DNA from: Reclinomonas americana ATCC 50394 | Taxonomy: Eukaryota | Length of the DNA: 64,000 nucleotides | Direction of reading: 5' to 3' | Assembly (NCBI GenBank): GCA_048213135.1 | Contig: PS015009.1 | Coordinates: 1,550,001 to 1,614,000 of the forward strand | Part shown: one piece after another, positions 1,497 to 58,375 of the stretch | Numbering within the stretch: position 1 is the first letter of the stretch | How the letters are laid out: every line of letters starts with the position of its first letter | Made by a program: the position numbers and the translations under genes | The notes under the pieces: generated by a model | Told to the model about the DNA's origin: nothing | What the model saw: only the letters and a program-made list of their open reading frames with translations | Database searches by the model: none

Positions 1497-4400
1497 ATGA
1501 TGAGAAAAGTTCTACTCTTCTTTATCGCTTTGTCGTTGTTTGTTGTGGCCTCAGCCCAGCAAAATGATGACGCTAAAGCCGTACAGCTGGTGAATGCCAA
1601 CAGCGCAGTCATCGGCCTTTCCAAAGACCAGCTCAGCAATTACAAAGTCAGCGCTACCTATTACAATGCCATAGCCGGTACACAAATGGTATACCTGCTG
1701 CAAACGTACAAGGGTGTGCCGGTATATAACCAGATGCTGGTGCTGGCATTCAAAAGCGGGAAACTCGTTTCTAACCAGGGCGCTTTCATCCCGTCTTTTG
1801 AAACAAAGATCAGTTCGCCATCCGCAACACCATCACTGGTGGCGGCATCTGCGGTAAGGGCCGCGTTTACAGAAGCCGGACTGGCTTCGCCCGGTAATGC
1901 TTTTGCAAAAAGCGTTTCGGAGAATGGCCGCAAAATCGACTTCGGTGTATTAAAAGGCGTGAATGAAAAAGTAACCGCCGAACTGATGTGGGTGCCTGTG
2001 GTAGAGAACGGACGGTACAAAAGTTTCAAACTGGCCTGGCAGGTGCAGGTGGCGCCATATGATAAGCCAGACATCTGGGAAATACAGGTGGACGCCGCCA
2101 ACGGCGCCATCATCGGCAAATTCAACCTCAACGTTTCTGATAACTGGGGCCATCATGGCCCGGTTGCAGAATCAGATGCACTGGTTAATATTCCTTCATC
2201 CATTGCACCATATACACCTTCTGCAAATGCGGCATTATCCGGCAGCAGGATTACAACTCCGCAATTCCTGTTGCCATCATCGGCCACATCAACTAATGGT
2301 CCTTCCATTGTAGGTACAGCCAATTACCTGGTGATCCCTTTCCCTGCGGAAAGTCCCAGGCATCCTGGTGGTACGGCTGCTGTGCGGACCAACCCATGGA
2401 CCATGACACCGGGAAATGCCACCAGCCTGGGATGGCATAACGACGGCGCTACAGATTATACCATATCACGCGGTAACAATGTGTGGGCTACCGAAGACAG
2501 GGCCGGTACCAACGGCAATGGCGGCATCATCACACCAACAGGTCTGCCTGCCACTTCCAGCACTACACCTGATCCGCTGAACTTTAATTTTCCTCCCGAT
2601 TATAACTCTGATCCAACCACCAGCACTACAGCTGCGAATAATTTCAGGCAGTTCGCTATCACCAATCTTTTTTACTGGAATAACCTTATGCATGACATGT
2701 CGTACCAGTACGGCTTCAATGAAGTGTCGGGTAACTTCCAGGCCAGTAACCAGGGCCGCGGAGGTTCACAAAATGACTATGTGATCGCCTGCGCCCAAAG
2801 CGCTGCGGAAGGCTCTATTGGCAACAACGCCAACTTTGCCACACCGGTAGACGGTGGCAGGGGCAGGATGCGTATGTACCTGTTCAATGCCGTTTCAACG
2901 GTAACCTTCCATGTGAACTCGCCCGCTGTTATTGTGGGCGACTATGGTGCTGTGGAAAGTGTTTTCAGTACCGCCAACAAACTGGTGAACGTTGGACCGG
3001 TTACCGCACAGGTAGTTTATTATAATGATGATGGTACACCAACCGGAACGCACTTTGCCTGTAATGGTTCCACCCCGGGATCACTCTCAGGTAAAATAGC
3101 GATGATCATCCGCGGTGGTGGTTGTGCCGGTGGTTTCGTGGAAAAAGTGAAGAACGCACAACTTAACGGAGCCGTAGCGGTGATCATGGTAAATAATGTT
3201 GCAGGCGGACCTATTGCCATGGGCGGAACGGATAATACCATTACCATTCCCGCTGTTATGATATCCGATGTGGATGGTGCTGCCATTGCGGCCCAGTTCG
3301 CGAATAATGTAAACGTAACACTCAGTGGCGCACCCGCTGTACCGCTTGATGGCGATCTTGATAATGGTGTTATGTGCCACGAATACGGACACGGCATTTC
3401 AACCCGTCTTACCGGCGGGCCCGGCAACAGTTCCTGCCTGGGCCAGAGCGTAACTGGTTGCAGTAATGCAAGAGAGAACGGCTCTGAAGGATGGAGCGAT
3501 TATTTTGGTTTGATGATGACCACTAACTGGGGAACTGCACAACTTACAGACGGTACCAAGGCCAGGCCAATGGGTACTTATGTATTGGGCCAGCCGCTGA
3601 ATGCCGGTGGTATCCGAATCAAACCTTACTCTACCGATATGACCATTGATCCGGCAACTTATGCCGATATGGGTGGCGCCACTTATTGTGGTGAGATCCA
3701 TAATATCGGTGAGATCTGGTGTGCCGCTATCTGGGATATGACCTGGAACATTATCCAGCAGGAAGGCGCTATTAACCCCGATCTTTTCAACGCGGCAGGA
3801 GCAGGCGGCAACAGCATCGCCATGAAACTGGTGATGGAAGGTTTGCGGCTGCAGGCTTGTCCGCCCGGCTTCATCGATTCCCGTAATGCCATATTAACTG
3901 CCGATGCCAACCTGTACGGTGGCGCTCACTACTGCGCTATCTGGAGTGCATTTGCAAGAAGGGGTATGGGATGGAGTGCCAGCCAGGGCAGCGCTTTAAG
4001 CTGTACCGATCAAACACCGGCCACCGATCTTCCTCCTGCACCGAGCATCAGCCAGCAACCCGCCAACACGAATGTTTGCGCAGGCGACAATGCTGTATTT
4101 ACTATTACAGCAGCAGGCGGCAACCTCAAATACAAATGGCAGGTAAGCACCAATGGCGGCGGTTCATGGACTGATGTAACGCCTGCGGCTACTACCAATA
4201 CACTTACACTGACCGGTGTAACTGCCGGCATGAACAACAACCAGTACCGTTGCGTACTTACTGCCGGTTGTTCTCCTGTAACACTGAATTCAAACGCGGC
4301 CATACTGAGTGTGAACACTGCTACGCCAAGTATAACTTCACAACCCGCCAATACTTCTGTATGTGTAGGCGCTACGGCCACTTTCAGCATTGCTGCTGAT

Positions 4401-8276: not shown

Positions 8277-9884
8277 ATGTTCATACACGACCTGGAAAAC
8301 CGTAATGCCATGCTGGCGGCGATCATCGACTCGTCGGAGGACGCCATCATCAGTAAAACCCTCGACGGCAACATCACCAGTTGGAATAAAGCGGCGGAAA
8401 AAATGTTTGGTTATACGGAAGAAGAAATTGTTGGTCAGCATATTTTCATACTCATTCCGGAAGACCGGCGCCAGGAAGAAGATATGATCATTTCCAAACT
8501 GCGCAAAGGAGAAAAGATTGAACACTATGAAACCATGCGCAGGACCAAATCCGGGAAAGAGATTCATCTGTCACTTTCCATTTCACCGATACAGGGCCCG
8601 AAAGGAATTGTAGGCGCTTCAAAAATAGCCAGGGATATCACGCGTCAGAAAGAAACAGAAACGTTGCTTCGCCAGCATGCGGAAAGACTGGAACTTATTG
8701 ATACCATTGGCAAGACGGTCTTTTCCACTTTCAATGGACAGGACATTATACAGAACGTTACGGATGCTACTACAAAGATAAGTGGTGCGGAGTTCGGTGC
8801 TTTTTTCTATAATATGGTCGATGCACGCGGAGAGACCTATATGCTATTTGGTCTTTCGGGAGCGCCGCGTGAAGTATTTGAAAAATTCGGCATGCCACGT
8901 AATACGGAAGTTTTTAAAACCACTTTCACCGGCAGGGGCATCCTCCGCTCGGATGATATTACACAAGACCCCCGGTATGGAAAGAACACTCCGCATAAAG
9001 GCATGCCCAAAGGCCACCTGCCGGTAGTGAGCTACCTGGCAGTACCGGTGGTATCGCAGACGGGCATTGTGATTGGTGGTCTTTTTTTCGGACATCACCA
9101 GGCCGCTATGTTTACCGAAGATCATGAACGGCTGGTGTCGGCCATCGCTTCGCAGGCGGGCATAGCGCTTGAGAATGCAAGACTGTACGAGGAAATACAA
9201 AACCTCAACAATAAAAAAGATGAGTTCATTGGTTTTGCCAGTCATGAACTGAAAACACCTATTACCACGATCAGTGGTTATATACAGATGTCGGAAAGAT
9301 CGCCGGAGCTGATGGCTTCGTTTATGCCGAAGATCAGCAAGCAGGTCAACCGCCTTTCGGCTATTGTTTCTGATTTGCTGGACGTATCGAAAATAGAAGC
9401 GGGTAAACTGGAACTGAACCTGTCGCACAGCAGCTTGCTGACCATTTTGAAAGACAGTGTTGAATCGGTGATACCGTTATCGGAAATACACCAGATAGAA
9501 TTCAGTCCGCCAGGCCAGGATGAAATAATCTTAGTGGACGCACAGAAAATATCGCAGGTCATTTCCAACCTGCTCACCAATGCCATTAAATATTCCCCGC
9601 CAGACAGTACCGTATCACTCACCGCTTTTCGTATCGGCGATAAAATACAGGTTGATGTGCAGGACCATGGAATAGGAATAGCCCATGAGCACATGGAAAA
9701 TATATTCAACCGTTTTTACCGGGTATCCTCAACCCGTAACCGGGTGCAAGGCCTGGGCATTGGCCTTTACCTGTCGCGGGAGATCATTGAAGCGCACCGG
9801 GGTAAGATATGGGTGGAAAGTGAAGAAGGGAAGGGTTCTGTATTTCATGTGTCCTTCCCTATTGAGGCCATAAAAGTATATTGA
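8277..9884 (+). CDS. Cytoplasmic PAS-GAF sensor histidine kinase
   Basis: PAS (SSEDAIISKTLDG..WN), GAF, ASHELKTP, NLLTNAIKY, GLGIGL. Confidence 0.95.
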   Translation: MFIHDLENRNAMLAAIIDSSEDAIISKTLDGNITSWNKAAEKMFGYTEEEIVGQHIFILIPEDRRQEEDMIISKLRKGEKIEHYETMRRTKSGKEIHLSLSISPIQGPKGIVGASKIARDITRQKETETLLRQHAERLELIDTIGKTVFSTFNGQDIIQNVTDATTKISGAEFGAFFYNMVDARGETYMLFGLSGAPREVFEKFGMPRNTEVFKTTFTGRGILRSDDITQDPRYGKNTPHKGMPKGHLPVVSYLAVPVVSQTGIVIGGLFFGHHQAAMFTEDHERLVSAIASQAGIALENARLYEEIQNLNNKKDEFIGFASHELKTPITTISGYIQMSERSPELMASFMPKISKQVNRLSAIVSDLLDVSKIEAGKLELNLSHSSLLTILKDSVESVIPLSEIHQIEFSPPGQDEIILVDAQKISQVISNLLTNAIKYSPPDSTVSLTAFRIGDKIQVDVQDHGIGIAHEHMENIFNRFYRVSSTRNRVQGLGIGLYLSREIIEAHRGKIWVESEEGKGSVFHVSFPIEAIKVY

Positions 9885-50737: not shown

Positions 50738-51289
50738 CTAATCATTCTTCGATCCCTTTTCTCCCACAAACCAGTGCTCCTTATCGCGGAAGAGTACATT
50801 AAAGGTGGTAAGCGTACCATAGCAGCGGGTAATGTACTGCTGCAGGTTCACTTTGTCTTCGTCGGTAAGGGTTTTGTGGCTGTTGATGTTTTGTTCCAGT
50901 ACCCGCAGGCGGTCACGCAGCATTACTATTTTGTGAAAAAAGTCTTCAATGGGCAGTTCCTTGGGTTTAAGGGATTTGTCGGCCGACTGTAATATCATGG
51001 TGCCGTTCTGCCAGCGGTCGCCCAGTTTAACCACTTCGCTTACCTCGCCCCACTGGCGGAGTATTTTAAGGAGGGAGCGTTCTACTTCTGAAACGGTTTC
51101 CACTTCGGCGGTTATGTTTTCGGGGATGATCTCGTCCAGGTTGCTGTCGGTTTTGTCGATCTCCTTTACGCCATGGTGAATAAAGGAAATGAGGTAGGTG
51201 GCATAGCGAACGGCTACTACCACGCCGGGGCCGTACTGCGTGTGTTGCAGGCGTGTGCCCGGGCCAAGGGTTAATTGATTGTCTTCCAT
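50738..51289 (-). CDS. Conserved hypothetical protein
   Basis: FFHKIVMLRDRLRVLEQ.IN...LQQYITR.YG.LTTFNVLF pattern; start taken at MEDNQL. Confidence 0.8.
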   Translation of the reverse strand: MEDNQLTLGPGTRLQHTQYGPGVVVAVRYATYLISFIHHGVKEIDKTDSNLDEIIPENITAEVETVSEVERSLLKILRQWGEVSEVVKLGDRWQNGTMILQSADKSLKPKELPIEDFFHKIVMLRDRLRVLEQNINSHKTLTDEDKVNLQQYITRCYGTLTTFNVLFRDKEHWFVGEKGSKND

Positions 51290-51350
51290 GGGGTAAAAGT
51301 AAAATAAAATAGAGGAATGAAGGAGAGCCGAATGAAAGAATGCAAGGGGA

Positions 51351-51592
51351 GTCATCTCGAGGTACAGTCTGTGCCGATGAGGAATGATATCGGGAAGAGA
51401 TCCCATGTTCCGCCGGGGTCTTCGGTACGAGACCCCGGCGGTTGTTTTTCACAGAGGACTCAGAGGATGTCATGCTGAGGTACAGCCTGTCCCGATGAGG
51501 AACGATATCGGGAAAGCATCTCATTCAATTGGAAAGAGATTCCTCGTACCTCGTGATGACAATCCCCCTTGAGCACAACACTCCGGGATGAC
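51351..51592. repeat. REP/REPIN-like palindrome cluster
   Basis: GTCAT(C/G)C.GA...GATGAC units shared with 52615, 59666, 60928, 61130, 63627 and 63885. Confidence 0.85.
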
Positions 51593-51676
51593 AGCAACCG
51601 AACACTTTATTATTCCAATCAACAGTAAATCGTTAATCGACCACAACGGAATGAAAAGCATATCATTCAAAAAGAT
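51407..51676 (+). repeat. Inverted copy of 60830-61075, including the leader and first codons of the PepSY gene
   Basis: AACAGTAAATCGTTAATCGACCACAAC(G/A)GAATGAAAAGCATATCATTCAAAAAGAT present in both copies in opposite orientation. Confidence 0.9.
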
Positions 51677-52425
51677 CACCGGCCAATATGGTCTTCGAAA
51701 CGCACGCTGCTGACCTGTTTATAATGCGGGCTTGATGCTCCGAATACGGATTTGATGTACAACTTTATGGCCTGGGCGGTTTGGATGAGGCCCTGCACGG
51801 GACTGTACAACTCCTCATCGCTGCGAATGCAGCTGTTGCTGAACTCGGTATAGGTGTTGATGACATTGTTGTTGGCCGTTTGCAGGGCGATGAGCATTGA
51901 GGTAAGTTCATCTACCTGCAACCCGGCTTCGTTGGGCGCATAAGCGTTTTCGCGGGAAACGAGTTCTACCAGGTCGGTGAAGTGATCGATAAGGCTATCG
52001 TAACTCTCCTGCGAAATGGAGACAGACCTGGGTGTGCACCCCGTGTCGGGAACAGAAGGTTCGGGAGTATCTGCTGTGATGGTACCTGCCCGCTTGCCAT
52101 AAATTTTGCGGAGGATGATGCGTGCATCGCTGGTCACAAGCTTATCGGCACCGGAAGCGGCAAGTGCATTGAACACACGTGCAGACACGGGCCGCAGGTC
52201 TTTAAAAGCAATAACGCGTGCATGGGTGGCAGCATCAAAGGCCGTACGGGCAGCCTTAACATCCCGCAAACTGGCCAGTGCTTTGGAGCGCTGCGCCTGC
52301 AGGGCAACTATCTTTAAACTTTCCCGCGAAGGGTTGTAAAAGGAGCCGTAATATTTGCAAAAGGAAATAAGGTTTTCGAAGTTGGCCACGTTCTTTGCAT
52401 AGCCGCTTTCAGAAACAGGTAACAT
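51676..52425 (-). CDS. Hypothetical helical protein (paralog of 53337-54089)
   Basis: SESGYAKNVANFENLISFC..Y...YNP; SISQESYDSLIDHF. Confidence 0.85.
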   Translation of the reverse strand: MLPVSESGYAKNVANFENLISFCKYYGSFYNPSRESLKIVALQAQRSKALASLRDVKAARTAFDAATHARVIAFKDLRPVSARVFNALAASGADKLVTSDARIILRKIYGKRAGTITADTPEPSVPDTGCTPRSVSISQESYDSLIDHFTDLVELVSRENAYAPNEAGLQVDELTSMLIALQTANNNVINTYTEFSNSCIRSDEELYSPVQGLIQTAQAIKLYIKSVFGASSPHYKQVSSVRFEDHIGR

Positions 52426-52614
52426 AGGGGTTAATGTTCTGGTTAATAATATTTTTTACGGCGTGAAAATATTTTAGCAGAATCTCTTTTTTATACCCGT
52501 GTTTGGAGGGTGTGGGGTAGGTATAATTTGGGGTAAGGCTATTGATAATTTACGATTTGCCATTGGAAACCAGCAACCTGGTTTTACAGCCAAGCAGTGA
52601 AGTAAGCAGAGGAC

Positions 52615-52708
52615 GTCATCCCGAGAGGTACAGCCTGTCCCGATAAGAAGCGATATCGGGAAGGGATCTGGCGTTCCTCCGGGGGCTTCGGTACAAGACC
52701 CCGGTGGG
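52615..52708. repeat. Direct copy of the 51351-51440 composite repeat
   Basis: GTCATC.CGA.GTACAG.CTGT.CCGAT...GATATCGGGAAG.GATC followed by the GGGG.CTTCGGTAC.AGACCCC palindrome. Confidence 0.8.
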
Positions 52709-52752
52709 CTGCTCGCATTTTTAATCCTTTCATTTCTTCCCTCTTTCATTTC

Positions 52753-52845
52753 TATAGCGTGCCCCGCCGGTTGCGGGTCGGGCTATCCGCTTCAAGTCCT
52801 CGTCGCCTGCGGCTCCTGTGGGCTTTCCGCTGCTATCCCTCACGC
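52753..52845 (-). ncRNA. Structured repeat/ncRNA, possibly Flavo-1-like (copy 1)
   Basis: GCGTGAGGGATAG.AGCGGAAAGCCC...AGCGGATAGCCCGACCCGCAACCGGCGGGGCA; second copy at 59462. Confidence 0.5.
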
Positions 52846-53002
52846 GCCTCCGTTGAAAATGCTGCCTGCGAAAAGGATTTCCCTAAGCCCGGAATGCAGG
52901 CTACTGTGTTGCGGAGTTCCCTCACATAAAGGAATTCAGGTTGGCCACAGCAATACTACAAGCGATCTATAACTACTGCGGGGTAAAACAAAAGGTTTCT
53001 TA

Positions 53003-53275
53003 AGAATTCCGGGCTGTATAAGAAACTCTCCCGGTTGTATGAGGAATTCTCTACGCTGTATTACTAACTCTCCCAGTTGTATTAGAAATTCTCTCTGTTG
53101 TATGAAAAACTCTCCCGCTTGTATGCGGAATTCTCTGCGTTGTATTGCTAACTCTCTCTTCTGTATCGTGAATTCTCTTCGTTGTGCCCGGAACTCTCCC
53201 GGTTGTATGGTTAACTCTCTGGCGTGTATTGCTAACTCTCCCGGATGAGTTGCGGGGTTTCTGTACTGTATAAGG
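53003..53275. repeat. 21-bp tandem array AAYTCTC-N5-TGTAT-N4 (11 core units plus 2 degenerate flanking units)
   Basis: Units start at 53024, 53045, 53066 and so on to 53234, in exact 21-bp phase. Confidence 0.92.
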
Positions 53276-53295
53276 AAATCCCTGTAAGAAAGGGT

Positions 53296-53330
53296 AAAAA
53301 TGGCGGCAGGCTGTAAAAGCACTGCCGCCC
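53296..53330 (-). terminator. Probable terminator of 53337-54089
   Basis: Minus strand GGCGGCAG...CTGCCGCC-ATTTTT. Confidence 0.65.
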
Positions 53331-53336
53331 TGTAAA

Positions 53337-54089
53337 TTACCTGCCGGTAAGATCTGAAAAGCGGATGCCGCTTACCTGCTTATACTGCGGACTTGAAGGG
53401 CCATACAGCGACTTTACATACAATTTTACAGACAAAGCTGTGTGTAAAATGCCTTTTACGGGGTTGTACAATACATCGTCGCGCTGAATGCGGCTGTTGC
53501 TCCAGGAAGTGTAGTTGTTGATGACATCGGTATTGGCAGTTTGCATTTGGGTGAGCAGGGTGCCGAGGCCAGCGACGGAAAGATCAGCTTCGTTAGGTTC
53601 GTAAGTGGTTTCGATGGAAACGAGCTCGACCAGTTTGGTAAAGTGATCGATAAGGCTGTCGTAACTCTGCTGTGAAACAGAGATGGACTTGGGCGTAGGC
53701 TCGGTGGGAGTGACGGGTACGGCCGGTACTTCGGGAGTGGCTACAGTGCCGGCACGTTTACCATATATTTTACGGATGATGGTGCGGGCATCGCTTACGA
53801 TAAGACCGTTTGACCCGGAGGCGGCGAGGGCATTGACCACGCGGCTGGACAGGGTGCGCAGGTTTTTAAACGTGGTGACGCGGGTGTTGGTAGCACTGTC
53901 GAACGCGGCTTTGGCCGACTTTACCCCCTGCAGGCTGGCGAGGGCGCTGGTGCGGAGGGCCTGCAAAGAAGTAATTTTTAAAGCTTCGCGTGCGGGGTTG
54001 TAATTGTTGCCGTAAGATTTGCAAAAGGAAATGAGGTCTTCAAAATTGGCCACGTTTTTGGCATGGCCCGTCTCTGAGTGAGATGGCAT
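53337..54089 (-). CDS. Hypothetical helical protein (paralog of 51676-52425)
   Basis: SETGHAKNVANFEDLISFC..Y...YNP; SVSQQSYDSLIDHF. Confidence 0.88.
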   Translation of the reverse strand: MPSHSETGHAKNVANFEDLISFCKSYGNNYNPAREALKITSLQALRTSALASLQGVKSAKAAFDSATNTRVTTFKNLRTLSSRVVNALAASGSNGLIVSDARTIIRKIYGKRAGTVATPEVPAVPVTPTEPTPKSISVSQQSYDSLIDHFTKLVELVSIETTYEPNEADLSVAGLGTLLTQMQTANTDVINNYTSWSNSRIQRDDVLYNPVKGILHTALSVKLYVKSLYGPSSPQYKQVSGIRFSDLTGR

Positions 54090-54304
54090 ACGATTGTAGT
54101 TTTAATGGTGTACGAAAATGATTAACAGGTCGAAGATAATATTGTGGTACAGTGCAAAGCTTTAATTGTGAAAGAGAGTTGTTCATTTAAAATTTTTACG
54201 GACAAGTTTAACTTTTGATTTGCAGGTATGCGTAGTGGTTAGTTTTGTTCAATACTGTACACAGAAGATAAAATAATGAAAGAAAACCTACGGTTTTTAG
54301 TTTT

Positions 54305-54410
54305 TACCGCAGAGGAACGAAAGACAAGGAGGCTGCACGAAGAATATTTCACGGAGAGCGCAGAGGGTTTTCACAGAGAAGCACAGAGAGATTTTCACGG
54401 AGAGACATAG
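54305..54410. repeat. CAC(A/G)GAG-type short repeat patch
   Basis: TTTCACGGAGAG, TTTCACAGAGA and GCACAGAGAG units. Confidence 0.6.
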
Positions 54411-54515
54411 CGAGGGCCTACGGCCTGTTTTTTGGGGGAGAGGGTGAGGGTAATAAAATACATGGCTGCCAGGGCGATGGGAGGTGGCGGCCGATGTATT
54501 GACGCTACGCGTGGG

Positions 54516-54809
54516 CTACGGATTTGCGGACTGCTGCTGCCTGTGACTGGCCAGCACGATGACGGCCTTTACAAACAACTCAGTATACTCGCAAAAAAAG
54601 AACATGTTGAGCCGGTTAACCGCTTTGCGCATGTGGAACAGGTTACTGTTGGTAAGGCTACCCATAGCCATTTGCCGCAGATCTCTGTTAACGCCCTGCT
54701 GGCCGAAGAACTTTAAATACTCCTCGATAACCTGCCAGGCTGCCTGCGGGGAATCCTGCGTGCTTAAATTCTGCTCCAGCTCGTGAATGTGTTCGGATAG
54801 GATGCTCAT
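54516..54809 (-). CDS. Small hypothetical protein
   Basis: 97-aa ORF from MSILSE, divergent from the XRE gene. Confidence 0.55.
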   Translation of the reverse strand: MSILSEHIHELEQNLSTQDSPQAAWQVIEEYLKFFGQQGVNRDLRQMAMGSLTNSNLFHMRKAVNRLNMFFFCEYTELFVKAVIVLASHRQQQSANP

Positions 54810-54848
54810 GAGGCGAATATAAGTATAAATGGTATATAAATACACTTT

Positions 54849-54866
54849 ATGTATTTATAAATACAT
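54849..54866. promoter_or_regulatory. Perfect 18-bp palindrome, candidate operator
   Basis: ATGTATTTA|TAAATACAT. Confidence 0.45.
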
Positions 54867-54974
54867 TTTAGTTGTATATAAAAAACCAATGCATTTGATT
54901 GTCAATGAGTTGTGAACTTATTTGCTCACTGAAGTAATAGATTAATATTATAGTTTTGAAGCAAAGTGATATTA

Positions 54975-55184
54975 ATGGCTGAAAAGCTAAAGCTAAATAG
55001 AATTAAAGCTGTTCTTGCTGAGCAGGATGTTAAACAAAAAGAACTGGCTGAACGTGTTGGTTTAAGTACCAATTCAATTGCCAGGATTTGTAATAATGAG
55101 AGCCAGCCGACGCTGAAGCATTTGTATGATATAGCAAAGGCGTTGGATGTGGATATAAGGGAGTTGTTGGTGAAGACGAAGTGA
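54975..55184 (+). CDS. XRE-family HTH regulator (possible R-M controller)
   Basis: NRIKAVLAE...QKELAE......IARICNNESQP; TAGTTTTG -7 element at 54951. Confidence 0.88.
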   Translation: MAEKLKLNRIKAVLAEQDVKQKELAERVGLSTNSIARICNNESQPTLKHLYDIAKALDVDIRELLVKTK

Positions 55185-55187
55185 GGT

Positions 55188-55646
55188 TTACTTAATAGAT
55201 TCAAATGAATTGGCTACTTCTAGGATTTTATTGACACAACGTTCTACTTCTTTTTTAATCTCATGTTCCCAAAACCTAATAACAGTGAATCCCATAGAAG
55301 TTAAGAGAAGGTTATTTTCCTTATCCCTCTGCATATTTCTCTCAATCTTCGGTATCCAAAAATCTCTATTAGCTTTAATTTTAGTTTTTTTAATTTCCCA
55401 ATTATAGCCATGCCAGAACTCTCCATCTATAAAAACTACAAGTTTATATTTCTTGAAGAAAATATCTGGAACTCCTGGCATTTTTGCATAGTTCAATCTA
55501 TATCTTAAACCTTTGTGCCACAATTCTTTACTTAAAATTCTCTCTGGCTTTGTTTTTACGCTACGAATTTTGCCCATAAGAATTGACCTCTCTTTCGAGG
55601 TAGTAAAACCAGAGCTAGAGTTAAATCGGGGTACATTAATTTTCAT
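55188..55646 (-). CDS. vsr: Very short patch repair endonuclease
   Basis: TKPE, GVPD, FIDGEFWHG, FWIPKIERNMQRD, RFWEH. Confidence 0.95.
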   Translation of the reverse strand: MKINVPRFNSSSGFTTSKERSILMGKIRSVKTKPERILSKELWHKGLRYRLNYAKMPGVPDIFFKKYKLVVFIDGEFWHGYNWEIKKTKIKANRDFWIPKIERNMQRDKENNLLLTSMGFTVIRFWEHEIKKEVERCVNKILEVANSFESIK

Positions 55647-55704
55647 CTACCATAATTTATAATATATTGCAAAATTAATAACCTAACCCACAACCTTAAC
55701 TAAA

Positions 55705-56406
55705 ATGGAGTTATCAAATGTAGAAATACTAAACCGTGCAAAGGAGTTTTTCAGGAAATATATTGTACAAGGCCATGTTGAAAAAGCATTAGATCGAGCC
55801 TCAAAACTTGAGAGTTACAATATTCATCCTTTCTTGTATAAGTACCTTGCAAACTTTTTGGAAGGAAACGACTCCCCCGTGAGTATCGCAAAAGCTTTAT
55901 TATACCCAAGAATTCTTGGAACCTCAATTACTACCATTTTTGGAATGAGGACACAACAAATGATTTCGGAAATATTTAAAGGGATGGGATCTACGACAGC
56001 GGGAATAGACATTGAGTTTATTGATAAGGTGGATGGACGGAAGAAGTATGCTCAATTAAAAGCAGGGCCGAATACGATCAATAAAGATGATATTAAAACA
56101 GTGTTGGGCCACTTCTCTGCTGTAAGGAACTTAGCCCGTGTAAATAAATTAGATGTAAGAATTGATGACCTTCTTGTGTGTATAATATATGGAACACAAG
56201 AAAGTATTAGTAACCATTATTTAGAAATACAAAAACAATATCCCCTGCTTATAGGAGCTGATTTTTGGTACCATTTAACTGGTCAGAAAGATTTTTTCGA
56301 TGAATTGCTTCAAGCAATTGGGGAAGTTATATTAGAAGTTGATGGCAAAAGCCGTGTTGAAGAAGCTATAGCAGTTTTAGCCAAGGAAATAGAGGATACC
56401 TTATGA
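55705..56406 (+). CDS. Type II restriction endonuclease (PmeII-like family)
   Basis: GTSITTIFG, GIDIEF.D..DGRKKY.QLKAGPNTINKDD (PD-(D/E)xK variant); next to the methyltransferase. Confidence 0.75.
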   Translation: MELSNVEILNRAKEFFRKYIVQGHVEKALDRASKLESYNIHPFLYKYLANFLEGNDSPVSIAKALLYPRILGTSITTIFGMRTQQMISEIFKGMGSTTAGIDIEFIDKVDGRKKYAQLKAGPNTINKDDIKTVLGHFSAVRNLARVNKLDVRIDDLLVCIIYGTQESISNHYLEIQKQYPLLIGADFWYHLTGQKDFFDELLQAIGEVILEVDGKSRVEEAIAVLAKEIEDTL

Positions 56407-57452
56407 GTTTTTTTATCCTCATAATAACGGTTTAAGAAGTCTACTATTGAGCCACCAATTGCTTTGCCTAAATTTACAGGAACTGCATTGCCTATCTGTT
56501 TATATTGTTCTGTTAAGGATCCTGCAAACTGCCAGTCATCTGGGAAAGTTTGAATCCTTGCATACTCTCTTACTGTAAAAGGCCTAGTTTCGTCGGGATG
56601 GCACCTTTCGGTCTGTTTTTGAGCAGGACTACATGTTAATGTAAGGCTTGGTTCATCCCAAGAGATCCTTCTGGCGATACCCGTTTTCCCTCCTCCTAAA
56701 TAAAAGCTTTTAAGCATATACTCTTTTTGAATTTTAAGGGGCAAATCCCTCCAATAACCACCAGGGGGAACCATTTCTAAAATTTCTTTTTTTCTTTTAG
56801 GATAGCTGACCCCTTTGGATTTAGGAACATCTTTTGAGTATAATTTTCCTTTCTTTAAGGCATCTTTCAAAGTAGGAATTTTGTCTTTATTTGGAGAAGG
56901 GTAAATAAAGCTAGTTGAAATATCTTTTCTTATACCAATAATTACCAGCCGTTCTCTTTTTTGAGGTACATTATAATAAATGGCCTTAAGAATTTGGGGA
57001 GGAGCAATGACATCATATCCAATCTCATCTAATACAGAAATCATTCCTTGTAAAGTTCTTCCTTTGTCGTGATTTAATAGCCCCCTTACATTTTCGCCAA
57101 TACAAATTGGGGGCATAACTTCTCTGACTATTCTCGCAAATTCATAGAACAATGTCCCCCTTGCATCTTGAAATCCAAGTTTTTTCCCTGCATAACTAAA
57201 AGCTTGGCAAGGAAACCCTCCAGTAACGACATCTACTTTATCTTTAAACTCAGAAAATGAAACATTTTTAATATCGCTTTCAATTACATTCCAGTTAGGC
57301 CTATTTATCCTAAGCGTTTCTGCTGCCCAATGATTTATTTCATTTAATGCAGCACATTTTAAACCAGCGGCTTCTAATCCTAAAGCTAGCCCGCCAGCAC
57401 CAGCAAATAATTCAATGACATTATAGCTTGGAATGTTTTTCTGAGATGCCAT
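56310..57452 (-). CDS. DNA cytosine-C5 methyltransferase (M.Eco47II/M.Sau96I-like, probably GGNCC)
   Basis: FAGAGG, GFPCQ, ENV, QKRER, QIGNAVP; TRD GGGKTGIARR...CSPAQKQTERCHP. Confidence 0.95.
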   Translation of the reverse strand: MASQKNIPSYNVIELFAGAGGLALGLEAAGLKCAALNEINHWAAETLRINRPNWNVIESDIKNVSFSEFKDKVDVVTGGFPCQAFSYAGKKLGFQDARGTLFYEFARIVREVMPPICIGENVRGLLNHDKGRTLQGMISVLDEIGYDVIAPPQILKAIYYNVPQKRERLVIIGIRKDISTSFIYPSPNKDKIPTLKDALKKGKLYSKDVPKSKGVSYPKRKKEILEMVPPGGYWRDLPLKIQKEYMLKSFYLGGGKTGIARRISWDEPSLTLTCSPAQKQTERCHPDETRPFTVREYARIQTFPDDWQFAGSLTEQYKQIGNAVPVNLGKAIGGSIVDFLNRYYEDKKTHKVSSISLAKTAIASSTRLLPSTSNITSPIA

Positions 57453-57610
57453 ACAGTAATGATAAATTATTTAGCAATAATAAGTATATTTCTTCTATTT
57501 TTCCAAGTTTGTTTTAGGTAAAAGCCTCATTAAAAATGGGGAAAAAAACGTATTTTTCTCTAACTTATTCTATTCTAGTTGTTGATTTTAAATTTTAAAC
57601 GGATACCTAA

Positions 57611-58375
57611 ATGAAAAAAAAGTATGTAAGTTATATATCTAATAAACACTTGCTTGATTGTATAGACAACCTTTACACTTCCTATTTAAAAGCAAAGAGT
57701 GGGATTACAAAGAAGAAATTTTATTACAATAAAATAGACACAATTAAACTAGTTTTTGATTCGAAATTTAATAGAATAAAGGAAGAAGATTTAATAGAAG
57801 TAGAAATTATACGGCAAATTGATAAATCTATCAATAATTTTATTGGGGTCTTTCATGAACAAATACTCGGTGGCATTAAAGGGTACGAAATTGGAACTAA
57901 AGAAGGATATGATATTAAAGCAACAGACAATTCATTATTTGCAGATATAAAAAATAAGCACAATACGATGAATAGTGGAGCAACTGAGAGTTTATTTCAG
58001 CGGCTAGCAAGGTTTGCAGATAGCAACAAGAAAGCAACTTGTTATTGGGTTCAAATTTTGGCGAAGGGGAGTTTCAACAAAAAATGGACTAGTATAATAA
58101 ATGGTAAAGAATATAGCCATAGCCGCGTATATAAAATATCGGGAGATCAATTTTATTATTTGCTCACAAATAAACAAAATGCTTTATCTGAACTTTATCA
58201 AGCATTGCCAATTGCAATAAGGGATTATCTAAAATCTAGTGCGTATAAAAAAACTGCCCCAAAGCATTCAGTTTTAGATGAAATCAAATCTGAAGTAAAA
58301 AAATCAAAACGCAGTATCCTGGATCAAGTTACATTTGAAAATTACTCCTATTATTTGGGATTTAACCAGTTGTAG
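57611..58375 (+). CDS. Eco47II-family type II restriction endonuclease
   Basis: RQIDKSINN.IG.FHEQILG and DIKNKHNTMNS motifs. Confidence 0.8.
   Translation: MKKKYVSYISNKHLLDCIDNLYTSYLKAKSGITKKKFYYNKIDTIKLVFDSKFNRIKEEDLIEVEIIRQIDKSINNFIGVFHEQILGGIKGYEIGTKEGYDIKATDNSLFADIKNKHNTMNSGATESLFQRLARFADSNKKATCYWVQILAKGSFNKKWTSIINGKEYSHSRVYKISGDQFYYLLTNKQNALSELYQALPIAIRDYLKSSAYKKTAPKHSVLDEIKSEVKKSKRSILDQVTFENYSYYLGFNQL

Follow-up and report, generated by a model that had tools for sequence, protein, structure and literature searches.

The stretch of DNA analysed here (the window) comprises 64,000 nucleotides (nt) of contig PS015009.1 from the Reclinomonas americana ATCC 50394 assembly GCA_048213135.1 and carries, at positions 53003–53275, an array of 13 in-phase units of 21 base pairs (bp), assigned to neither strand and, as read from the sequence, free of insertions and deletions. 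The array starts approximately 60 bp beyond the stop codon of a minus-strand gene, hereafter gene A (53337–54089), which encodes a basic protein of 250 amino acids (aa) that is predicted to be all-helical and to contain an internal duplication of a domain of approximately 110 aa. Between the stop of this gene, at 53337, and the array lies a terminator-like hairpin on the minus strand (53292–53329), composed of an 8-bp G+C stem (arms at 53302–53309 and 53322–53329) and a 12-nt loop and followed by ATTTTTA; a simple terminator scan with a loop limit of 8 nt skipped it. Downstream of the array, on the same strand, a second gene of the family is found, paralog B (51676–52425; 249 aa), whose product is about 60% identical to that of gene A. 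Comparison with related loci indicates that the array is linked in cis to the gene upstream of it as its partner, the two being inherited as one module.

On the gene strand, the units of the window array read ATACA-N5-GAGARTT-N4, with the centres of the two conserved boxes 10–11 bases apart. The 11 units at 53024–53254 described in an earlier note on this DNA, made from the sequence alone, are all present, and a degenerate outermost unit at each end (53003 and 53255) brings the number to 13. Nine of the 13 match the plus-strand motif AAYTCTC-N5-TGTAT exactly, while the units at 53171 and 53234 each deviate at two positions of the TGTAT box. With at most one mismatch allowed, the whole window contains 10 matches to the motif, nine of them in the array and one at 9486, compared with 0.55 expected by chance; none of 100 shuffles reached 10. 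A repeat search recovered 10 in-register copies spaced by exactly 21 bp, and Tandem Repeats Finder reported periods of 21, 42 (score 185) and 84 (score 254) over 53008–53244. The self-identity of the array amounts to 0.60 at a lag of 21, 0.65 at 42, 0.60 at 63 and 0.67 at 84. AACTCTC and AATTCTC units do alternate, though only mildly, which gives two sub-types that read roughly ATACAACCGGGAGAGTT and ATACAACGCAGAGAATT on the gene strand. In the conservation profile, the harmonic corresponding to two peaks per unit is significant (p = 0.003); the variable positions are clustered in blocks (p = 0.011) and exhibit no 3-base periodicity (p = 0.28). A megablast search of 52400–53400 against E. coli genomes gave no match.

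Gene A belongs to a very large, unannotated family of Bacteroidota and Ignavibacteria. A word-index search yielded 2682 relatives at E ≤ 1e-3, whose sole names are 'hypothetical protein', and a full scan with a hidden Markov model yielded 3073 clusters at 50% identity, the top 150 of which are all 235–280 aa long; a search for longer proteins of the family revealed no fused forms. Neither gene A nor paralog B could be assigned to a Pfam, NCBIfam, PADLOC or PHROGs family. Pfam searches with 37 family members at E ≤ 1 returned scattered chance matches only, and DUF6261 appeared as a weak match in three of the 37 (best E 0.016; Atlas score 0.82). With the family protein as query, tblastn matched none of 72,556 plasmid records and none of 50,697 phage records. 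The AlphaFold2 model of the gene A protein, built on a 37-sequence alignment, consists of helices only (predicted local distance difference test score, pLDDT, 89.6), arranged in two four-helix halves (residues 4–108 and 138–240) with a disordered linker between them. Alignment of the N-terminal with the C-terminal half by hhalign (95% probability, E 3e-8) indicates that the halves are homologous and that the domain of approximately 110 aa has been duplicated internally. Each half ends with two short helices bearing invariant Lys/Arg residues (K107, K222 and K226), and the family as a whole is basic, with a median isoelectric point of 9.4 and a net charge of +7. The prediction of a two-copy complex of the gene A protein scored 0.00, which says nothing either way.

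To place the array in a comparative context, we used 80 loci that encode relatives of gene A (designated by L numbers), drawn from one-genome-per-species contigs of Chitinophagaceae, Saprospiraceae, Flavobacteriaceae, Chryseobacterium and related genera, Cyclobacteriaceae, Sphingobacteriaceae, Bacteroidales bins and Ignavibacteria, with a few from bins carrying other labels. The carriers include cultured bacteria: loci of the family occur in Flavobacterium gelidilacus DSM 15343, F. croceum DSM 17960, which has three copies, F. limnosediminis JC2902, Epilithonimonas mollis DSM 18016 and Chryseobacterium oryctis. For the 75 gene copies with at least 400 bp of downstream sequence, lags of 8–45 were scanned in the 600 bp downstream. 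The best lag was 42 in 45 copies and 21 in 24, that is, one or the other in 69 of the 75. Over 126 bp, identity at lag 21 reached at least 0.5 downstream of 64 of the 75 copies, compared with three of 78 upstream regions and none of 81 gene bodies; in the upstream control, lag 21 or 42 was best in 16 of 78 regions, somewhat above chance. Tandem Repeats Finder placed arrays with periods of 21, 42, 63 or 84 directly after the gene in most loci. By our segmentation, arrays of at least 100 bp accompany 70 of the 80 copies, with a median length of 209 bp, equivalent to 10 units (range 101–543 bp), and a median gap of 60 bp between stop codon and array. The suggestion that the array is partnered with the flanking gene family is borne out: arrays lie beside 69 of the 75 homologous copies, the opposite of the absence that the earlier note had associated with a neutral minisatellite. 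The more specific pairing with both flanking paralogs holds for gene A but not for paralog B, which has no array of its own (best downstream lag 15, lag-21 identity 0.34).

The period is constant across the family and the unit sequences diverge strongly between loci, a CTGCA-like box and an A/T-rich AGAAWT-like box forming a loose pattern common to the arrays. The unit of the window has no significant similarity to any other array in either orientation (best score 7.81; column-shuffled null 7.23, standard deviation 0.54), and what the window shares with the family is period, position and architecture. The direction of the units with respect to the gene is conserved in 847 of 1128 pairs of arrays and for 47 of 48 arrays. 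Over the same number of pairs, the more identical the proteins, the more similar the units of their arrays (Spearman 0.27, with none of 500 permutations as high), which fits the inheritance of gene and array as one module and is, taken alone, no proof of recognition. Paralogs in one genome have differing unit sequences, and such copies have little in common apart from the gene and some stretches of sequence beyond the array. Clustering of the variable positions in blocks is significant in 12 of 48 arrays, and the harmonic at two per unit dominates in 14 of the 48 and reaches significance in 14; the window array is among them in each case.

Signals between gene and array were surveyed in 62 related loci. 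A crude finder for hairpins followed by a T-run reported such elements between stop codon and array on the gene strand in 24 of the 62 and on the opposite strand in 29, and after the array in 17 and 32 of 60, respectively; since the opposite-strand counts are as high or higher, these numbers carry no strand information. TAnnTTTG, which we take to be the −7 promoter element of Bacteroidota, is present in the interval from stop codon to array in one of the 62 loci, as against 21 upstream of the gene.

In many loci the array is followed by a conserved non-coding sequence that matches in all six frames. A small conserved open reading frame (ORF) after the arrays was considered and rejected, because the six-frame match points to conservation as nucleotides and not as protein. 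The core of this sequence is a hairpin of approximately 94 nt, whose stem has two parts and whose C/A-rich loop is conserved. A covariance model, built from 11 sequences and rebuilt from 22, gave 33 matches at E < 0.001 in 29 of the 80 loci (L001:5029–5120, L010:5134–5228, L023:5027–5120, L035:4992–5082 and 25 further loci). Of these matches, 32 are on the gene strand, most lie directly after the array and 11 are outside the training set. In the alignment, which was fitted to the model and so favours structure, 93.8% of the cells pair and 14 of 15 pairs change on both sides, values that none of 500 shuffles reached; in slid controls, 27–56% of the cells pair. The pairs comprise two G–T and four A–C or C–A cells versus 286 Watson–Crick cells, and, given this near-absence of G–U pairs, the hairpin may belong to either strand and act as RNA or as DNA. 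A T-run follows the hairpin in the L023 group. No Rfam family corresponds to the hairpin, and the rebuilt model does not find one in the window (best E 1.6 with filters off).

Extra copies of the hairpin with no array nearby occur at L012:380, L050:3355 and L020:4793 and 7339. Between diverged copies in L020, L050 and L072, two of which come from one bin, the stretch after the array is more conserved than gene and array. L020 and L072 are 60% identical in the gene, 51% in the array and 88% in the next 200 bp; L020:4200–4608 and L050:2786–3194 are 86.5% identical over 409 bp, with a gene identity of approximately 69–75%. This stretch holds a promoter-like TTTG-N19-TAnnTTTG directed downstream. 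In L074, an array (3448–3661) and a hairpin (3202–3296, minus strand) lie upstream of the gene, within 3202–3661, and are inverted relative to it, and no periodic sequence follows the gene; the arrangement looks like an inversion of the array-hairpin part, and L074 is one of the upstream regions in which lag 21 or 42 was best.

Based on these observations, we tentatively propose that the array is a multi-site nucleic-acid binding platform for the protein encoded next to it. The module would be composed, in order, of a promoter, the 250-aa gene, the terminator-like hairpin and about 10 (here 13) head-to-tail 21-nt units, each offering two short conserved boxes approximately half a unit apart. 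A single protomer would occupy each unit, presumably placing one copy of its duplicated domain on each box, and adjacent protomers would align in a fixed register. The proposal builds on the exact register of the units, the block-wise constraint, the basic and duplicated protein and the private units of the paralogs. We slightly prefer double-stranded DNA as the form in which the platform may act, because 21 bp corresponds to two helical turns, because 21 of 48 arrays contain one A+T patch per unit, and because a terminator-like hairpin, without a promoter motif in all but one of the 62 loci, separates gene and array. As double-stranded DNA, the array would present all of its boxes on one helix face, and the terminator would keep it outside the main transcript of the gene.

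Two plasmid systems exhibit comparable arrangements. The F-plasmid centromere sopC consists of 12 direct repeats of 43 bp (PMC3177203). As with sopC and SopB, a direct-repeat array is located immediately downstream of the gene of the protein that binds it (putatively so in the family described here), the unit comprises whole helical turns and the copy number is similar, at about 10–13 units. In contrast to sopC/SopB, no ParA/SopA partner lies beside the gene, the protein contains no ParB, helix-turn-helix (HTH) or ribbon-helix-helix (RHH) domain, the units lack the 16-bp inverted repeat, and the module is chromosomal and often present in several copies per genome. Pfam searches revealed no ParB, HTH or RHH domain and no partner NTPase in the gene or its neighbours over 50738–58375. 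Iterons such as P1 incA and F incC, directly repeated at intervals of about two helical turns, adjoin a Rep gene, and Rep is a basic protein of approximately 250–330 aa with one duplicated domain, each half of which contacts half of a bipartite repeat. The module resembles them in its period of about two turns and in adjoining the gene of a basic, internally duplicated protein. However, Rep is a winged-helix, alpha/beta protein, while the family protein is predicted to contain helices only and has no match in the Protein Data Bank (PDB); moreover, it belongs neither to Rep_3 nor to another Rep family and is not matched in the 72,556 plasmid records, and several active origins on one chromosome would be implausible.

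Several observations weigh against the proposed platform. Six of the 75 gene copies have no downstream array (paralog B, L025, L041, L064, L074 and L075), and the co-variation of protein and array is equally predicted by plain co-descent. The gene A protein has no likeness to any known DNA- or RNA-binding fold: Foldseek searches with the whole protein against PDB and BFVD, and with its N-terminal half against PDB, returned nothing below E 0.1. The two-box harmonic is absent or non-significant in 34 of 48 arrays, and the window unit shows no preferred orientation relative to the family (51% forward). The 42-bp higher-order period noted earlier is present in the window and in some other arrays but is not general, as identity at lag 42 exceeds that at lag 21 in only 21 of 39 arrays, and the idea that the 42-bp alternation mirrors the duplication of the protein domain was rejected as a general rule on the same comparison. 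An operator copy upstream of the own gene is common among DNA-binding autoregulators, but the unit motif is not enriched in the upstream 200 bp of the gene (best-ranked in one of 47 loci, median rank 17 of 46), giving no sign of such a copy. A role at the DNA level in particular is opposed by the covarying hairpin that 29 of 80 loci carry after the array on the gene strand, one group with a T-run behind it, since this hairpin looks like the 3′ end of an array-containing transcript.

The earlier note had offered a phased protein-binding array or a processed small-RNA array; the former and a non-guide form of the latter both survive and are not separated by our data, whereas the guide form does not hold. 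In an RNA-level module, transcription would extend across the array, either by reading through the hairpin downstream of the gene or, where a terminator is lacking, in the form of its 3′ untranslated region. The resulting repeat RNA would bind the adjacent protein, scaffold it or titrate it, in a manner likened to type III toxin–antitoxin systems or sponge RNAs. We regard this as unlikely, yet as an explanation to be taken seriously. The conserved unit orientation relative to the gene strand speaks for it, as do the hairpin of approximately 94 nt on the same strand after the array, with its T-run in the L023 group, and the 38 of 62 loci in which the crude finder sees no terminator between gene and array. 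On the other side, the promoter motif precedes the array in a single locus of the 62, and a strong hairpin with a T-run precedes the array of the window. The post-array hairpin is nearly free of G–U pairs, which is unusual for an RNA helix, is not found in the window and has no matching Rfam family. Arrays are poor in G on the gene strand, with C exceeding G in 54 of 62, but the gene shares this skew (62 of 62), which is therefore not discriminating, and GC skew was rejected as an RNA-strand signal.

With regard to the type III systems (ToxIN, AbiQ, CptIN and TenpIN), PMC5086642 describes a conserved repeat length with diverging sequence and copy number, frequent defence contexts, and an array that precedes the toxin gene, with a Rho-independent terminator between them and one promoter for both. 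With such a terminator being the norm there, the terminator in the window is no evidence against an RNA role. The family described here shares with type III systems the conserved repeat length combined with divergent sequence and, in the window, the terminator-like hairpin between array and gene. It differs in that its array follows the gene and consists of about 10 copies of 21 nt, whereas in type III systems the array comes first and contains two to six copies of units of 34–36 nt or more. Pfam and PADLOC revealed no ToxN/AbiQ, CptN or TenpN family, and the predicted fold is helices-only, with no PDB match. Sponge RNAs of the CsrB/RsmZ type carry their motifs in hairpin loops at irregular spacing, and their genes are unlinked to that of the protein. 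Here, too, a single molecule that bears a short motif many times over could titrate a protein or bring about its assembly, but the exact register and the tight linkage to the protein gene set the module apart.

A third explanation, which we consider quite improbable, is that the array acts in cis as a structural or regulatory element, in the service of the gene or as an insulator of its neighbours, and is not bound by the adjacent protein, for instance as phased A+T patches that bend DNA or a repeat-based barrier to transcription or mRNA decay. Such an element would be in keeping with the one A+T-rich patch per 21-bp unit, phased every two helical turns, in the 21 of 48 arrays mentioned above, with the constant position directly after the gene, and with the co-directional upstream neighbour in 65 of 74 loci, through which the module often closes a run of genes on the same strand. 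It leaves unexplained, however, why the array is tied to one gene family across very different neighbourhoods, why paralogs in the same genome have distinct unit sequences, and why sequence boxes, beyond mere composition, are conserved within arrays.

We consider it very unlikely that the array is a neutral minisatellite that came to lie beside the gene by chance, or a guide-RNA array of the CRISPR or TIGR kind. Slippage does expand and homogenise tandem repeats, and several of the related arrays are 84–92% uniform; a period and a position shared by 69 of 75 copies from Chitinophagia, Flavobacteriia, Cytophagia, Bacteroidales and Ignavibacteria records are nevertheless not how a neutral repeat behaves. 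CRISPR arrays consist of repeats of about 25–36 nt and unique spacers of similar size, with cas genes nearby. This possibility was rejected, as it already had been in the earlier note: the entire unit measures 21 bp, with boxes of 5 and 7 nt, and the neighbouring genes have no Cas or PADLOC match. The formal resemblance to TIGR is closer. TIGR arrays, according to PMC12045711, are composed of two alternating repeats of 8–12 nt and spacers of 9 nt (8–12), giving units of approximately 36 nt in 5–15 copies. That source and bioRxiv 10.64898/2026.09.09.750476 describe 36-nt tigRNAs, a Nop-domain protein, and phages, archaeal viruses and CPR bacteria as hosts. As in that description of TIGR-Tas, each unit here contains two short conserved and two short variable segments and the array adjoins a small protein gene. 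Unlike in TIGR, the boxes span 5–7 nt and the variable segments 4–5 nt, shorter than the 9-nt spacers of the 36-nt units described there, and in many arrays the so-called variable segments are invariant. The arrays of L080, L057, L067 and L071 consist of near-identical units and are spacer-free, and close pairs are collinear without unit turnover, L010 and L018 being 93% identical in the gene and 93% in the array. The gene A protein has no Nop, Cas or nuclease domain; specifically, no Nop domain emerged from Pfam searches with 37 members, from a PDB sequence-profile search (no Tas or Nop chain) or from Foldseek against PDB. The TIGR-like guide array proposed earlier thus fails on spacer-free relatives, segment length and the missing Nop domain.

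The array is non-coding, and a variable heptad-repeat micro-protein, the remaining proposal of the earlier note, is hardly credible. As that note had recorded, both strands of the window array are open: the plus strand at 53039–53248 (69 aa), and the minus strand at 52936–53322, where a frame of 128 aa, which we judge not to be a gene, runs across the array in (R/G)E(F/L)xIQx heptads from a GTG start (53322–53320) situated inside the hairpin. In its favour, 128 codons stay open and the borders of fixed and variable segments fit codons (ATA CAn nnn nGA GAR TTn nnn), so that the Y of AAYTCTC and the Y before TGTAT fall on synonymous positions. Among 62 related arrays, however, stop-free frames exist on the forward strand in 26 and on the reverse strand in 29. 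The open forward frames are in frame 0 relative to the gene in 15, +1 in 14 and +2 in four. After edge trimming (n = 56), 34 arrays are open forward, 40 reverse and 11 in neither direction. The 3-base periodicity of variable columns is significant in one of 48 arrays, compared with 2.4 expected by chance, and the implied peptides are unconserved between arrays whose nucleotide boxes are conserved. The start codon within the hairpin counts against the frame as well, as does the use of ATA in 11 of its 13 Ile codons. ATA had previously been called rare; it does make up nearly all Ile codons of this frame, yet it also accounts for 24% of the Ile codons in 13 further ORFs of the window and is thus the one used least there without being rare. 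In a weak Pfam match, the frame 52936–53322 scored 20.5 bits against T6SS-SciN, for which the cut-off is 27. Since neither a frame nor a strand is kept open and 3-base periodicity is lacking, the codon fit in the window is best read as a coincidence overlying nucleotide-level constraint. Such constraint had been suggested in the earlier note and agrees with the absence of a conserved frame and the block-wise clustering of the variable positions.

A literature search for 21-bp repeats in Bacteroidetes and Flavobacterium found no paper on the gene, the array or the hairpin, and a looser search returned unrelated eukaryotic small-RNA papers only. As no family model, Rfam family or paper was found, we rate the module as a new kind, with a function that is conjectural. 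It might represent the founding example of an undescribed system widespread in Bacteroidota and Ignavibacteria, in which a duplicated helical protein of a new fold and its cognate array, often closed by a hairpin, would assemble in fixed register, the paralog-private array would act as a specificity address, and the resulting nucleoprotein filament would have a role new to bacteria, plausibly in genome conflict; we advance this broader picture with reserve. More than 3000 clusters at 50% identity, from several Bacteroidota classes, stand here without a name, a domain assignment, a structural relative or literature that we could find, and the linkage to the array makes of these hypothetical proteins a defined module whose partner is open to testing. 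Should the protein read its own array, it would provide a new fold for sequence-specific, register-keeping nucleic-acid recognition, and the paralogs would supply built-in orthogonal pairs; should the array act as RNA, it would constitute a repeat RNA of a new class.

What flanks the module differs widely between loci, as judged from a scan of 93 of 128 selected flanking ORFs, from which ORFs overlapping arrays, ORFs of near-duplicate loci and a transporter pair already identified had been left out. Type IX secretion cargo proteins are encoded upstream in nine loci, and P-type ATPases and TonB-dependent receptors form further classes. In L005, L006, L008, L024 and L040, which are of Chitinophagaceae type, the genes directly in front of the module encode a C39-peptidase ABC exporter and an HlyD-type protein, a neighbourhood that may reflect shared ancestry. 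Restriction-modification or GmrSD genes adjoin the module in eight related loci. In the window itself, a restriction-modification cluster (55188–58375) encoding Vsr, an EcoO109I-like enzyme, a C5 cytosine methylase and an Eco47II-like enzyme is located just upstream. With restriction-modification genes beside roughly one in ten contexts, a role in genome conflict seems possible. At the gathering score, Rfam matched nothing in the window and, in 17 related loci, one unrelated Flavo-1 RNA (RF01705, 49.5 bits), which is located at L015:3849–3936 on the minus strand, immediately upstream of the family gene.

Further repeats surround the module in the window. Beyond the array lie copies of short repeats that recur elsewhere in the window. 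A dispersed repeat of 56–83 nt is present in three copies (51351–51441, 51469–51524 and 52617–52707) in the spacers around both paralogs; two of the copies end in a G+C-rich hairpin (CCGCCGGGGTCTTCGGTACGAGACCCCGGCGG), and the three copies have the appearance of a small family of intergenic repeats in this genome. Upstream of gene A, 54347–54403 holds 2.5 copies of a 24-bp tandem repeat (TTTCACGGAGAAGCACAGAGGAT). A short A+T-rich repeat with a 21-bp period and a sequence unrelated to the main array (54832–54882; 2.4 copies) is placed between an ORF of 109 aa on the minus strand (54516–54845) and an ORF on the plus strand (54966–55184), and may be an operator.

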